DNA of 64,000 nucleotides, taken from assembly GCA_000004695.1 (NCBI GenBank), contig CM000152.2:5120001-5184000 (forward strand), given 5' to 3'. This document shows positions 56,361 through 63,302 of the stretch, in pieces. This DNA comes from Dictyostelium discoideum (Eukaryota). The notes beneath the pieces are model-generated. The model made no database searches, had not been told where the DNA came from, and saw only the letters and a program-made list of their open reading frames with translations. Position 1 is the first letter of the stretch, and each line of letters opens with the position of its first letter. The position numbers were made by a program, and so were the translations under genes.

Positions 56361-57301
56361 ATGGTTAAAAATCAAATATTTTCATTAAAATCATTGTGGT
56401 CATCTTCAATTTTCAAAATTTTGTATTGTTATTTGTTTACATCATTATTATTGATACTATCGACTTGGGTATCTGTTAATGATGGATTATCAGTTAGAGA
56501 GCATATTATATTATTAAGATTATATTTCGATACTAATGGTACAACATGGTATCATAATCAAGGTTGGAAAGAGTATGCAGATTGCATACTAGCAGCAGAT
56601 GGCTCAGTTAGAAAGGCTTTAGAGTCAATTGATCCTCTCACCGGTCAAATACCACAATATTTATGGGCTGATCATTTTAGTCAATTGGATAATAATAAAA
56701 CATTATATAAAATAATTCATAATCAAATTCAAGGTCATAAAGTTGTAATTTGTAATGCATTTGGTATAACTTGTGAAGATAGAATTAACTTAACTGGAAT
56801 GTAAGCTTTAATAAATATATTATTATTATTATTATTTTCTAATTTATTCTAATTTAAATTTAATTTTACTAAATTTAGAGATTTATCAAATAATAATTTA
56901 AAAGGTAATATTACACCTTATTTACCTTATTTATTACATTTAAGGAATTTAAATCTTTCAAATAATCATTTATCAGGATGTTTCCCAGATGGATTATTAA
57001 AAGCTCAAAGTTTAGTAGCATTAGATCTTTCATATAATAATATTAGTTGTACATTATCATTAGCAGATTCAAAAGCAATTTCATATATGTATGATATATA
57101 AATATATTTTTTTTAAAAAAAATTCACATAAACTTTTATAGTAATAATTTAAATTCTAATTAATTCTATTTTTATTCAATCCTATTAATAGTGATATTAG
57201 TCATAATCATTTAACAGGTTACTTTAAAAATGTTTGGAAAACCCCAAATTTATTATTTTTGTAAATATTAATATTATTATTTTTTTTTTTTTAATAGTAA
57301 T

Positions 57302-57335
<34 letters not shown>

Positions 57336-59460
57336 CAACCAAATTTGATATTTATATAAATATTAATATATCTATTTTAATATTTATACTATTAATAGGG
57401 ATTTATCATTTAATAAATTATATGGTACAATATTAAAAGAATTTTTTAGGCAAAAATCTTTAGATTATGTTAATCTTAGTTCAAATCAATTAATTGGATT
57501 TTTACCAATTTTATCAAAATCGAGAATTTCTTATTTGTAAATACTTTTTTTTTTTAAAATTTAATTTATTTAATAATTTTGTAAATTTATTTAATAATTT
57601 TGTAAATTTATTTAATAACATGTAATCTTTTTTTTTTTTTTATATTTAATAAATAGAAATATAAGTAATAATAGATTAATTGGTAATATAACATTATTAA
57701 CATGTTGGAAAGCAGGATCATTAAGAATTTTTGATGCAGAAAATAATATGTTTGAAGGGGCATTACCAGAGAGTATATTTGATCATTCACCATTACAATA
57801 TGTTAATTTAAAGGGTAATATTGTAAAGGATCCATTACCATCAATTTTAGATTGTGCAAAGAGTGAAGTTAAAATAATAGTACCAGATGGATTGAAACAA
57901 AATAAATGTGATCCAAAAGTTTCAAGTAATTGGGTACTAATTTTGAATCCATTAGGTGAAGAATTTAATATAGTTGGTAGTGATTTTGGAATTAATAGTA
58001 AATCAATTAATATTCAATTTCAAAATGGGTTACATTGTGTTGATAATGTAACGACCATAATTAAATCCAATACTATTATCTCTTGTAAAAATCCTCAAGG
58101 TAGGAATAGCACCTATTTAAAGCTAACCATACCAACTGGTGAGCCTGGTAATTTCACTGTTATTAAACAACAACTCTACTACTATAGACCAATTATTAAA
58201 AGTTGCTCAAAAGTTTATAAAAACATTGGTGGTGAAATAACTATACTTGGTAGTCATTTAGAAAGTTTTAATAAAACAAGTAATGGCAAGAAAATGATAA
58301 CAGTTTCAATTGGTAATATTAAAAATAGTTTTACAAATGTTACCTCTAGTATCAATAGTGATGGTTTCAGTGGAGAGGTTATAAGTTGTCGTAATGCTGA
58401 TATAATTACACCCGATATGATAACCTGCTCAATACCATCCAACACTAATTTACAACAACCTGCTGAAATTCAAATTATAATCGATGGTATAACTGCATAC
58501 GTTCCAATAGATTCAACCAGACCACATTTCCTCTATAAAGGTGTTTACAATAAAGATATCACAATATCTAAACCAACAGAATACAATCAAACCATAACTA
58601 TATCAGTACCAAATGAAACTATAATAGATATGGATCAAGTTGTACGGGTTTTAATTGATGATAATGATGATTCAATTTGTAAGAATATTCAACATATTAA
58701 TAAAACTTCAATTCAATGTTTACCTTATAGTGAAACTTGTGGTTCAAATGTTAAAGTTACACTTGTAACAAAATATGGTGAACCTCAATTTACAACCTCT
58801 TTAAATTATCCACCACCAATCATTACTCGTGTAACTCAAGGTATTGATTCAACCTCAAATTCAATTATAACAATTAATGGTAAATTTTTAAAAACTGGTG
58901 GAAAACGTAATCTTTCAATTAAAATTAATGATACAATTTGTTGTCCACTTTATAATGAATATTATTATAAACAAGATGAATTAGATGATGATAACAATAA
59001 CAATAATAATAATAATAATAATTCAACAACAGATATAAATAATAATAATAATATTATTAAAAATAATAATTTAATTAAAGAAGAACAAATATTATGTTAT
59101 TATCAAATAAATCAATCATTACCAATTCATTTAAATTTACCAGTTACTTTAACATTATCAAATCAAACTGTTGTTAAAAATAATATTTATTCTCAAACAA
59201 ATTCAACATGTCCAAATAATTGTGTTAAACACAGAACCAATGGTTGTAGATCAGGAATTTGTGAATGTTATCCAAATTTAACAGGTCCATCTTGTGATGA
59301 AAATATACCAGAATCAACAATATCAAATTTTTCAAATTATTTACCAGATTTTATTTTATCATTTCCAAAATTCATTACAAATAATACATTTAATATTAAA
59401 TTTTTATCAATTTCTGAAGTAAATGAATCTGGAAATATAGTTGATAGATTTTGTAGCTTA

Positions 59461-59521
<61 letters not shown>

Positions 59522-60483: not shown

Positions 60484-60582
<99 letters not shown>

Positions 60583-60936
60583 TTTAATGATGGTAGTGAT
60601 ACTTTTAATAATAATAATAAGAAGAATTTAAATTATGAAGATAATTGTGATACTGTTGGATTTGATGGTAAAGAAAATGATATAAAAAATATTAACAACA
60701 AAAAAGATGAAAAAGAAGATGATGGTGATGATGATGACGATGAAGATGATGATGAATATGAAGATGACACACAACCATGTAGTAGTGGAAATAGTAGTAG
60801 AAGTAAAGGTAGTGATGGTGGTAGTAGTAGTAATAGTTTAAGTAGTGATAAACAAAGTTTCAATAATGGAAATGAAAATAATTCAATTATACCAGAAAAT
60901 AAAAAAAAACATTTAACAATAATAAATAAAAAATAA
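56361..60936 (+). CDS. type-I membrane protein: LRRNT cap + LRRs + IPT/TIG-like repeats + EGF-like module + TM + poly-Asn/acidic tail; 5 exons (56361-56800, 56879-57088, 57192-57260, 57399-57536, 57657-60936), ~1378 aa
   Basis: Every junction is phase 2:
- ..INLTG-AT|GTAAGC..tttag|A-GATTTATCAAATAATAATTTAAAAGG (IDLSNNNLKGNITPYL)
- ..AISY-AT|GTATGA..aatag|T-GATATTAGTCATAAT (DISHNHLTGYF)
- ..LLF-TT|GTAAAT..aatag|G-GATTTATCATTTAATAAATTATATGG (LDLSFNKLYG)
- ..ISY-TT|GTAAAT..aatag|A-AATATAAGTAATAATAGATTAATTGG

The last junction is in frame with ORF-track ORF 57748-60936. IPT-like segments include PIITRVTQGIDSTSNSIITINGKFL. The EGF-like module is CPNNCVKHRTNGCRSGICECYPNLTGPSCDE. The TM helix is YYIVFFGCASGLILVLVICIV. 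Confidence 0.65.
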
Positions 60937-61088
60937 TAATTCAGAATAGTAATAATAAATGTTATATTAAAATAAACTTTTTTTAAAAATAAATAAAATA
61001 AAATTAAAATAATATGTTACTTTGGTAATTGTTAAATAATATAATTTTATTACAAATTTAAATATTCCTTATTATTATTATTATTTAA

Positions 61089-63302
61089 TTATATAATAAT
61101 TGAAGCAATAATTAAAAATATAAATGAAATGAGTGATACATTAAGTATAGAAGATGAGGAAGGATGATTTGATGAGTCATCAGTTGAGGAGGATTTAGAT
61201 GAAGTTGTTTGAGAACTTGATGTTGTTGAACCACCTATTGTTGAACCACTTCCTGAAGTTACTGATGTTGTTGAACCAGCTGTAGTTGAACCAGCTGTAG
61301 TTGGACCAGCTGTAGTTGAACTACCTCCTGAAGAAGAATCTAAATCAAATGTAACATTTTTTGATTGAACACCACCAACATTAATTGATACTGTAAATTT
61401 GTTACCATTTGGAAAATTATTCATTAAAACGGTAGGATAAATTGAACCATTGTATTGATAAGTATATGCTTGTGAAAAAGTATAAACTACACCATCTATG
61501 GTAACATTATTTTTTCCAATAAAATTAAATCCAGAACCAGTAATTAAAAGTTTTGGAGTACCGGTACTATTGTAAGAGAATGATGTAATTATTGGTTCTT
61601 CATATGTATAGTTAAATGAGAGAAATTTATCATTCGTAAATCCAGTTGATTGCTCTCCTCTTCCAATACCCATTGGAACTGGAATAATAAGATATTTATT
61701 TGGTACACCAACTCTCAAATATAATGGATTTTTAATATACCATCCAAAATCAGTACCGTATATTGTTAAAATAGTTGATCCATCTGTTTTTGCAACATAA
61801 TTGAACTGTTTTGTGAAATTGAAAGTGTTACATGTTGTTCCATAATCGGGGAAATTATTACCTTTCCATGGATTGACAGATACATATGTTGGATCGTAAC
61901 CACCAAAATATCTTGTACCAAGACAACTAAAGCATGTTGGGACATCAGAGAAGTCATTATTACCAAAATAAAAATTTCCCATTTCCAAATAACAAAACTC
62001 TTGTGGAACAGTACCTGTGAAATTATTATCATTAATATTTATCTTGAATTTATCTTGATTAAAATTAAAAACCTCCACTGGGAAGGTTTGATGTAATCTA
62101 TTATTGTTTATTGTAATTGCTGAAACATTTTTGAAATCAAATGTTGATATATTAAGGTAACACCAATTCATTATAAATTTTGTGTTTGGTGGTAATTTAA
62201 TACATGGTTTTGTTGTACATCTTATATAATTACAACTCTCCAATGGTGAATAATCTCTATTATCTCCACCAGCGAATACTAAATTAAATTCATCTGCTTT
62301 TACAAATGAAAAATCTAAATAACTTTCTGTGATACTTTTATTAAATCCATTATTCCTAATATTAAGAGTATTTAAATTACTTGAAATATTTATTAAGTTT
62401 GAAGGGAATGGCCAAGTTTGATAAGGGTATGCAAAATTGATATTTCTATCGAAATTCATAAAGTTGATTGAAAACTTTGTTAAGTTATAAAATGGTACAT
62501 TAAAAGTTGGAAAATTAAAATCTGTATAAGATGAATCAAATTTACCATTTTGAATATATAATTCAAGATTATTTAAATTTTTGAATGCTGAACCAATGTT
62601 ACTTGGAAAACCTGAACCTGGTCTAACTGGAATATCCAAATTATTTAATTTTTCATTTACTGGGAAATCAATTGGAAAAGTAGAAGGTAATTCATAACCT
62701 GGTAAACCATTGTAAAGCGAAACATAATAGGCTGGACTTTTAAAAAAATTAACTCCTAATTTTGTACCAATATTCAAAATTTTAATTAGATACATTGTTT
62801 TTGGCATAACTAATAATGAATCTGTATATGTTGAATTAAATGTATCAATATCTCTATTTTATTAATTTTTATATTAGTAAATTATATTATTATTAATAAA
62901 AAAAAAAATAATAATAATAATAAAATAATAATAATAAACTTACAAAACTGTTAAAGATGTTAATTTTGTTAAACTGTCAAATAATTTAGATGGATAAATT
63001 CCTTGACCAAGGGTAATACTTGTAACATTTTCAAAAACAGAGAAATCAATGTCTAAAAAAGCACTTTTGATACCATTTAAAAGTGATAAATTAATCTTTG
63101 TAACTGTATAATTACCAGAACCATCATTTAATGGTGCGCAAGTGAGCCAAGTACATACTGCATTATATGATGGGCCTTTTGTAAGAGCTAGTAATTGAAT
63201 AGCTTCAGAATGTTGTTTTGGTGGAACATTTTGGCAAATTATTTTACCATTAAAATATCCAAAAATTAATAAAATAACAAACAAATAAATAATTTTATTC
63301 AT
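61089..63302 (-). CDS. LRR + IPT/TIG-like surface protein with Ser/Thr-rich stalk and C-terminal hydrophobic (GPI-signal-like) end; 2 exons (63302-62944, 62853-61089), ~707 aa
   Basis: Signal peptide MNKIIYLFVILLIFGYFNG. Donor GTT-TT|GTAAGT, acceptor aaaatag|A (phase 2). This gives ..LTSLTVL-LDIDTFNSTYTDSLLVMPKTMYLIKILNIG... An IPT-like segment is PIITSFSYNSTGTPKLLITGSGFNF. The (TTAGS)n stalk is followed by ..ILNVSLISFIFLIIASIII*. Confidence 0.6.

Follow-up and report, generated by a model that had tools for sequence, protein, structure and literature searches.

Two convergent genes for leucine-rich repeat and IPT/TIG surface-type proteins on chromosome 3 of Dictyostelium discoideum: probable remote paralogues that evolve separately

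In published descriptions, the Tgr proteins of Dictyostelium are transmembrane (TM) proteins that consist of TIG/IPT and E-set domains (PMC12745789, PMC3188802), and the genes for two of them, tgrB1 and tgrC1, are extremely polymorphic and lie in a locus with prolific duplication and recombination (PMC12745789). Here we describe two other genes for surface-type proteins, located in a 64,000-nucleotide stretch of D. discoideum chromosome 3 (assembly GCA_000004695.1, contig CM000152.2, positions 5,120,001 to 5,184,000 of the forward strand), which we refer to as the window and which has a GC content of ∼22%. An earlier reading of this DNA, hereafter the original prediction, had presented gene A (56361-60936, plus strand) and gene B (63302-61089, minus strand) as a candidate adhesion or recognition pair whose products combine leucine-rich repeats (LRRs) with IPT/TIG modules, and had likened the pair to the tgr genes. 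Our analysis leads us to a different reading, in which we place moderate confidence: A and B are separately evolving, tail-to-tail genes for N-glycosylated cell-surface binding proteins that belong to one remote superfamily.

Both genes have intact structures. Gene A consists of five exons that form an open frame of 1378 amino acids (aa), and all its introns are canonical GT..AG introns. Two other D. discoideum strains have annotated orthologues with identical splice junctions, KAM9959464 among them, and D. citrinum, D. firmibasis and D. purpureum likewise possess orthologues; those of D. citrinum and D. firmibasis exist but were not returned by our word-index homologue search. The exact AX4 protein of the present gene A model was absent from a collection of 15 billion proteins in which the same-junction strain orthologues are present, and the AX4 annotation may make use of a different model. 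Judged from identifier order alone, the AX4 identifier of gene A is probably DDB_G0281965, because DDB_G0281969 is mybE (PMC5804921) and the identifiers advance by two. The four introns of gene A, all located within 56801-57656, share one phase (after codon base 2) and fall at LRR unit boundaries. Specifically, exon 3 corresponds to exactly one repeat of 23 aa and exon 4 to two repeats, a pattern that would fit repeat expansion through exon duplication. Gene B has two exons separated by a GT..AG intron and encodes 707 aa. Its translation is identical to the AX4 protein DDB_G0281967 (Q54T73), annotated only as 'IPT/TIG domain-containing protein', and this identity marks the window as DNA of strain AX4. 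The possibility that either gene is a pseudogene was ruled out by the open frames, by the orthologues, and by ratios of nonsynonymous to synonymous substitution rates (dN/dS) far below 1.

The two stop codons were originally placed ∼150 bp apart, and the measured distance is 152 bp. AATAAA signals are found on the plus strand at 60954, 60971 and 60992, which is 18-56 nt beyond the stop codon of gene A, and on the minus strand (TTTATT on the plus strand) at 61046-61051, ∼38 nt beyond the stop codon of gene B. These positions suggest that the transcripts of A and B probably abut. Of the two arrangements that had been proposed for the 3′ untranslated regions, abutting is thus retained, while extensive overlap appears less likely. 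The features of gene A and of the spacer are as follows.

56361-56800, 56879-57088, 57192-57260, 57399-57536 and 57657-60936, plus strand: exons of gene A (GT..AG junctions and open frame)
56409-56465, plus strand: N-terminal hydrophobic segment, aa 17-35, signal peptide or signal anchor (Kyte-Doolittle 1.84)
56490-57864, plus strand: LRRNT-like cap (aa 44-143) and nine plant-type LRRs of 22-24 aa, together aa 44-355 (Pfam and motif scan)
57907-59199, plus strand: ∼4 IPT/TIG-like beta-sandwich modules, with a poly-Asn insert in the last, aa 370-800 (Pfam TIG)
59209-59295, plus strand: EGF-like six-cysteine module CPNNCVKHRTNGCRSGICECYPNLTGPSC, aa 804-832 (pattern match and cysteine conservation)
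59296-60273, plus strand: uncharacterised beta-rich juxtamembrane region of the ectodomain, aa 833-1158 (conserved to D. purpureum, E 1.5e-43)
60283-60339, plus strand: TM helix, aa 1162-1180 (Kyte-Doolittle 3.0; the helix is also present in a low-confidence structure model)
60340-60933, plus strand: cytoplasmic tail, a juxtamembrane motif followed by poly-Asn, acidic and Ser low complexity (four-species alignment)
60937-61088, no strand: AT-rich spacer of 152 bp between the stop codons of A and B (read directly)

Whole-protein Pfam scans of both products were nearly blank because low-complexity bias lowered the scores, and scans of segments were used instead. In the LRR part of gene A these exceeded the respective cut-offs for LRR_1 (55.8 versus 20.6 bits), LRR_8 (41.7 versus 27 bits) and LRR_4 (33.2 versus 27 bits). 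The count of nine repeats is composed of eight strict matches in the motif scan and one repeat read by eye (∼aa 308), and the list of homologues for the LRR part was headed by plant LRR receptor-like proteins (RLPs) and receptor-like kinases (RLKs). For the IPT/TIG region, PF01833 reached 31.8 bits summed over three stretches of aa 370-731, where the cut-off is 20.9 bits, and 57.3 bits in the D. purpureum orthologue. Cys-x-Cys-x5-Gly-x2-Cys (C-x-C-x5-G-x2-C) is the EGF signature of PROSITE entry EGF_1. By eye, this signature is fitted by CECYPNLTGPSC within the six-cysteine module of gene A, and none of the six cysteines varies across the species from D. discoideum to D. purpureum. We name the module 'EGF-like' only, because the six-cysteine pattern is conserved but the Pfam scores remain below cut-off.

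The beta-rich region that follows is broken up by an Asn/Glu low-complexity insert at aa ∼886-945. Beyond the TM helix, the juxtamembrane motif (aa 1181-1225) reads CSRIESRQRKQIIKSF...KTPLLP...HFNFLDY, and these 45 residues are invariant or nearly so across four species, with a dN/dS of ∼0. At the opposite end of the protein, the n-region in front of the hydrophobic core differs in length between strains. Other D. discoideum strains carry a 10-aa Ser-rich insertion there, and ∼70 residues, including poly-Asn, precede the core in the D. purpureum orthologue. The hydrophobic segment of gene A could thus serve as a signal anchor; alternatively, some of the start codons are possibly mis-called.

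Gene B shares the general plan of gene A at its N-terminal side and differs from it at the membrane-proximal end.

63302-62944 and 62853-61089, minus strand: exons of gene B, DDB_G0281967 (Q54T73; translation identical to the AX4 protein)
63237-63302, minus strand: signal peptide, aa 1-22 (aa 4-22 hydrophobic, Kyte-Doolittle 2.12; present in most family members examined)
61908-63230 including the intron, minus strand: cap helix and degenerate LRR solenoid of ∼14 turns, aa 25-435
61347-61820, minus strand: IPT-like module (aa 465-538, motif only) and Pfam-supported IPT/TIG module (aa 540-622)
61149-61337, minus strand: Ser/Thr/Gly-rich mucin-like stalk, aa 626-688 (59% Ser/Thr)
61092-61148, minus strand: C-terminal hydrophobic tail of the glycosylphosphatidylinositol (GPI)-attachment type, aa 689-707 (Kyte-Doolittle 2.79)

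No Pfam LRR model matched gene B, either in the whole protein or in its N-terminal segment. A profile of B and its relatives compared with the PDB, on the other hand, matched the plant LRR receptor kinases GSO1 (6e-19) and FLS2 (1e-18), with the matches centred on aa 358-431, where the last two to three LRRs are of the plant type and are followed by a C-terminal cysteine cap, CFSC. In addition, the AlphaFold model of gene B had a predicted local distance difference test score (pLDDT) of ∼70-89 across aa 25-390 and placed a strand every 22-36 residues. The profile match and the model indicate that the first ∼410 residues of gene B form a predicted LRR solenoid. PF01833 reached 28 bits in the gene B segment (aa 540-622; cut-off 20.9 bits), and the isolated module stayed below threshold. 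The stalk differs in length and sequence between strains. The 19-residue tail has no cytoplasmic residues behind it, is immediately preceded by SSSS and is kept in the orthologues and in most paralogues, which makes a GPI anchor the most likely predicted outcome of the C-terminal signal.

With respect to architecture, much of the original prediction thus holds. One member was described as TM-anchored with a long Asn/acidic cytoplasmic tail, the other as GPI-like with a Ser/Thr stalk, and both descriptions were confirmed by the positions of the TM helix and of the tail at the extreme C-terminus of B. Both genes were further said to encode a signal peptide, an LRR cap and IPT/TIG repeats. The N-terminal hydrophobic segments (in A, a signal peptide or anchor) and the TIG matches agree with this, whereas the cap in A and B is putative and was assigned from motifs and conserved cysteines only, the Pfam model LRRNT_2 matching neither gene. 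Likewise, the domain searches that had been suggested gave scores above cut-off for LRR_8 in A and for TIG in A and B; those for LRRNT_2 and EGF did not, so that of the proposed EGF module the conserved cysteine pattern is what stands.

Homology searches placed gene B in a multigene family. A HMMER scan with the B profile returned 66 cluster representatives at E≤1e-10, ∼25-30 of which match over most of their length. All ten clusters that were looked up are from Dictyostelium; they comprise DDB_G0269740 and proteins of D. purpureum, D. citrinum, D. dimigraforme and D. cf. discoideum. Gene B is 24-32% identical to its paralogues over ∼550-650 aa. Members of the family are 700-770 aa long, and in most of them a signal peptide is combined with a GPI-type tail; at least one relative ends in a TM helix and a short tail instead. 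Five cysteines at the cap position are invariant. Pfam TIG matched half of the 24 aligned members (12, best 1e-11), and a Pfam LRR model (LRR_8/LRR_4) matched one of the 24. By its full-length profile match, gene B is a member of this family, which has the order signal peptide, Cys-capped LRR, IPT and hydrophobic C-terminal tail. The named members that we found are annotated only as hypothetical or IPT/TIG proteins, and our literature search found no main-text mention of DDB_G0281967 or DDB_G0269740. As a side observation, some long D. purpureum and D. citrinum entries (1909, 1639 and 1419 aa) contain three to seven profile matches, or a B-like part joined to unrelated Gln-rich sequence; gene prediction has probably merged tandem clusters here, or the models are fused.

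Pairwise BLASTP of A versus B detected no significant similarity, and a phmmer search with the region of A behind the LRRs against all fetched proteins retrieved its own orthologues only. A connection became visible when profiles were compared. Alignment of the gene A orthologues with the B family by hhalign gave a probability of 97% (E 1.2e-10) over 191 colinear columns, spanning the last two LRRs, the Cys cap, the first IPT module and the beginning of the next one. Restricting the comparison to the IPT parts left a weak match (E 5e-4), which was again colinear. Together these results delineate the B family and show that its members have a colinear LRR-cap-IPT-IPT cassette in common with A. 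To judge from these profiles, A and the family are probably remote paralogues that have this core in common and differ in their membrane-proximal ends.

If A and B were a polymorphic pair for allorecognition (kin discrimination) like tgrB1/tgrC1, as their IPT/TIG modules, their adjacency and the predicted location of both products at the cell surface would allow, their sequences should bear the marks of it. The original prediction had proposed a check of inter-strain polymorphism, and we compared two D. discoideum strains, AX4 and ACTFIR, with the neighbouring MaoC-like and dual-specificity phosphatase (DSPc) genes as controls. The strains differ along the whole locus (dS 0.05-0.11). The dN values were 0.0155 for exon 5 of A and 0.016 for exon 2 of B, compared with 0.0146 for MaoC and 0.0127 for DSPc, so the divergence of both genes matches the background set by their housekeeping neighbours. 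Against D. citrinum and D. firmibasis, dN/dS was 0.11-0.18 for A and 0.09-0.26 for B, and the dN of gene B was two to three times that of gene A. Sliding windows gave a dN/dS of 0.0-0.13 for the folded modules of A, including the IPT modules, with only low-complexity linkers near 1; in gene B the windows ranged from 0.10 to 0.47 and showed no peak. Identity to the D. citrinum and D. firmibasis orthologues is 91% and 88% for A, and 79% and 70% for B. A and B are therefore under purifying selection, which is stronger on A.

These values, with no folded region near 1, speak directly against a tgr-like pair. The same holds for the absence of a TM or cytoplasmic domain from gene B, for the large LRR domains of both products, which lie outside the published Tgr description (PMC12745789, PMC3188802), for the different rates at which A and B evolve, for the D. 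purpureum locus, where A has no B beside it, and for the stable 1:1 synteny described below, whereas the tgrBC locus is reported to be unstable in copy number (PMC12745789). We regard a kin-discrimination pair of this type as extremely improbable. Of the earlier idea of an adhesion or recognition pair, the surface-type architecture of LRR and IPT/TIG modules and the common cassette persist, while the analogy with allorecognition is not supported.

We then turn to what the arrangement of the two genes can tell. The order of a mybE-like gene, a long spacer, B, A, the MaoC-like gene and the DSPc phosphatase gene is kept in the second D. discoideum strain, in D. citrinum and in D. firmibasis, where the spacer between B and A measures 162, 85 and 140 bp, respectively. 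In D. purpureum the MaoC gene adjoins the A orthologue, and the genes downstream of A are unrelated. A tblastn search with B found no trace of it at this D. purpureum locus; nor was a B orthologue found in D. purpureum at large, the best relatives being ≤31% identical to B. Since D. purpureum has MaoC and A without B, the pairing of A and B is confined to the D. discoideum clade. Convergent genes have no common promoter, and the 152-bp spacer gave no sign of shared regulation. There are 4,672 convergent gene pairs in the D. discoideum genome (PMC11754127), and because such pairs are very common, orientation and short spacer carry little weight. The adjacency of A and B most plausibly reflects genome history, through remote paralogy or chance, and is not evidence of a ligand-receptor unit, although an origin by tandem duplication could not be demonstrated.

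A related proposal is that A and B form a receptor/co-receptor unit by analogy with NgR1/LINGO-1 or CD14/TLR4, in which B would be the GPI-anchored, ligand-binding LRR subunit and A its signal-transducing TM partner, and in which adjacency would aid joint inheritance or regulation. The convergent pairing kept in two D. discoideum strains, D. citrinum and D. firmibasis is in line with this, as are the common domain vocabulary and the homologous cassette. However, D. purpureum has A without a neighbouring B, B evolves two to three times faster than A, the convergent genes lack a common promoter, and many B paralogues do not adjoin an A-like gene. In the one published expression data set covered, DDB_G0281967 (gene B) appears, with uncertain column assignment, in an early DOWN list of filter development (probably Hr03_gradual) and in an UP list of cAMP-pulsed suspension at ∼8-12 h (PMC4403905, Additional file 7). 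DDB_G0281965, the probable gene A, is found only in a suspension DOWN list, where both column and identifier are uncertain (same file). These memberships in different lists provide no support for co-regulation of A and B. We consider a receptor/co-receptor unit unlikely, and we are more doubtful still that A and B are the halves of an amoebozoan receptor complex in which the NgR1/LINGO-1 or CD14/TLR4 design was invented independently. If the latter were true, such a complex might serve the recognition of microbes or cells in the D. discoideum clade.

The view that A and B evolve separately could be extended on the side of B. The B family may be that of the GPI-anchored glycoprotein gp130 and of the 138-kDa glycoproteins of sexual cell fusion; B would then act in growth-phase adhesion and macropinocytosis, or in gamete fusion. 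In the statements through which it is cited, gp130 was reported as a GPI-anchored preproprotein of 768 aa, and its similarity to the proteins of the 138-kDa family was given as ∼40% (Chia et al. 2005, cited in PMC2443395 and PMC9197732). The sizes of the B family, with the signal peptide and GPI-type tail of most members, agree with this, and the early filter DOWN listing of DDB_G0281967 would suit a growth-phase gene. The annotation of the named members as hypothetical or IPT/TIG proteins does not. We hold this extension to be possible, and tentatively so.

Several observations weigh against the reading of A and B as separately evolving surface proteins of one superfamily. The IPT calls in A depend on summed weak repeats, as each single module scored below the Pfam threshold, and the Pfam EGF models also remained under cut-off in the gene A segment (EGF_Teneurin 14.4 versus 24.3 bits, EGF_laminin 14.1 versus 21 bits). 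The region of aa 833-1158 matched no Pfam model in the segment scans, and the AlphaFold model of gene A exon 5, built on a three-sequence alignment, had a mean pLDDT of 36 and was unusable. The remote homology of A and B depends on one profile-profile comparison with a partly LRR-driven signal. Finally, two adjacent LRR and IPT genes exceed naive chance, and as four genomes have retained this neighbourhood, A and B may be linked in some way in function or regulation.

From the architecture of the two products we infer how they may work. Gene A would encode a type I membrane protein whose curved LRR domain is the likely ligand-binding surface, held off the membrane by the ∼4 IPT/TIG modules, the EGF-like module and the beta-rich region, and whose TM helix and conserved juxtamembrane motif may couple it to sorting or signalling partners. 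The product of gene B would present a degenerate, Cys-capped LRR solenoid and one or two IPT/TIG modules on an O-glycosylatable Ser/Thr stalk with a likely GPI anchor. Both are most likely adhesins or receptors for extracellular ligands, be it on other cells, the substratum or microbes.

A third LRR gene is located in the same window at 40486-36500 on the minus strand, and was originally described as having an LRR ectodomain and a 9-TM domain. Its LRRNT-like cap and LRRs (Pfam LRR_8/LRR_1) were recovered, and at least seven hydrophobic TM segments were counted. In addition, it contains a Cys-rich DUF7630-like stretch and has a weak TRP-channel-like match, and its cap and LRR region aligns with that of gene A (BLASTP 4e-11). 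Its design recalls that of the 9-TM adhesion receptor SadA.

Upstream of A lies the MaoC-like hydratase/dehydratase gene (55084-55752, plus strand), whose adjacency to A is kept to D. purpureum, and upstream of that the DSPc gene (∼53300-54950, plus strand). Upstream of B, a 6.6-kb gene-less stretch of 10-18% GC (locus L001, 3405-10000) extends from the window, in which its first 700 bp occupy positions 63303-64000. It separates B from a divergent gene for an 851-aa Myb/SANT protein, probably mybE (DDB_G0281969), and contained neither a tRNA gene nor an open reading frame of ≥120 aa. A comparable gap upstream of B is seen in the gene calls of D. citrinum and D. firmibasis. Being unusually long for this compact genome, the stretch may be a large regulatory region.

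If our reading of the two genes is right, A and B add two uncharacterised members to the surface proteins of dictyostelids, a large repertoire that has been little studied. Of possible use in this respect are the recognition of a family of LRR-IPT glycoproteins in Dictyostelium, probably GPI-anchored and with LRRs too degenerate for Pfam, and the evidence that the conserved TM protein A has the LRR-cap-IPT core of this family. The clear negative result for tgr-like polymorphism at this locus may also be of use to others. All this would gain in weight if gp130 and the glycoproteins of sexual cell fusion turned out to belong to the B family, or if the products of the two genes were to interact physically.

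Compared with known systems, A and B resemble the Tgr family in being dictyostelid surface glycoproteins with Ig-like IPT/TIG modules and in belonging to a lineage-expanded gene family, and gene A does so also in its TM helix and cytoplasmic tail. They are set apart from the published Tgr descriptions by N-terminal LRR domains of 300-400 aa and, in the case of gene B, by the GPI-type end; from tgrB1/C1 they differ in their background-level divergence and stable synteny. ComC, compared by its Pfam description, is likewise a dictyostelid protein with EGF-like domains and resembles gene A in general design. It has, however, an LRR model of its own, PF24141, which did not match the LRR region of gene A at E≤1, and the region of A behind the EGF-like module had no Pfam match. 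Among the fold matches of gene B were LINGO-1, NGL-1, the Nogo receptors and bacterial internalins, which have the LRR fold alone in common with it (9-14% identity). The Ig-like modules of A and B are of the IPT/TIG type, and there is no evidence of descent beyond the LRR superfamily. The combinations LRR-IPT/TIG-EGF-TM of A and LRR-IPT/TIG-mucin stalk-GPI signal of B were not seen among the matches. In sequence and fold alike, the LRR parts of A and B are matched best by the plant LRR-RLPs and RLKs (FLS2, GSO1, BRI1, PGIP), with which they share 22-24-residue repeats of the form LxxLxLxxNxLxGxIP and Cys-containing caps; unlike these, A and B have no kinase domain, and their LRRs precede IPT/TIG modules. 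The full-length architecture of gene B recurs in DDB_G0269740 (Q55D91) and other Dictyostelium IPT/TIG paralogues, which are distinct genes at other loci, none of them characterised, with 24-32% identity over ∼600 aa.

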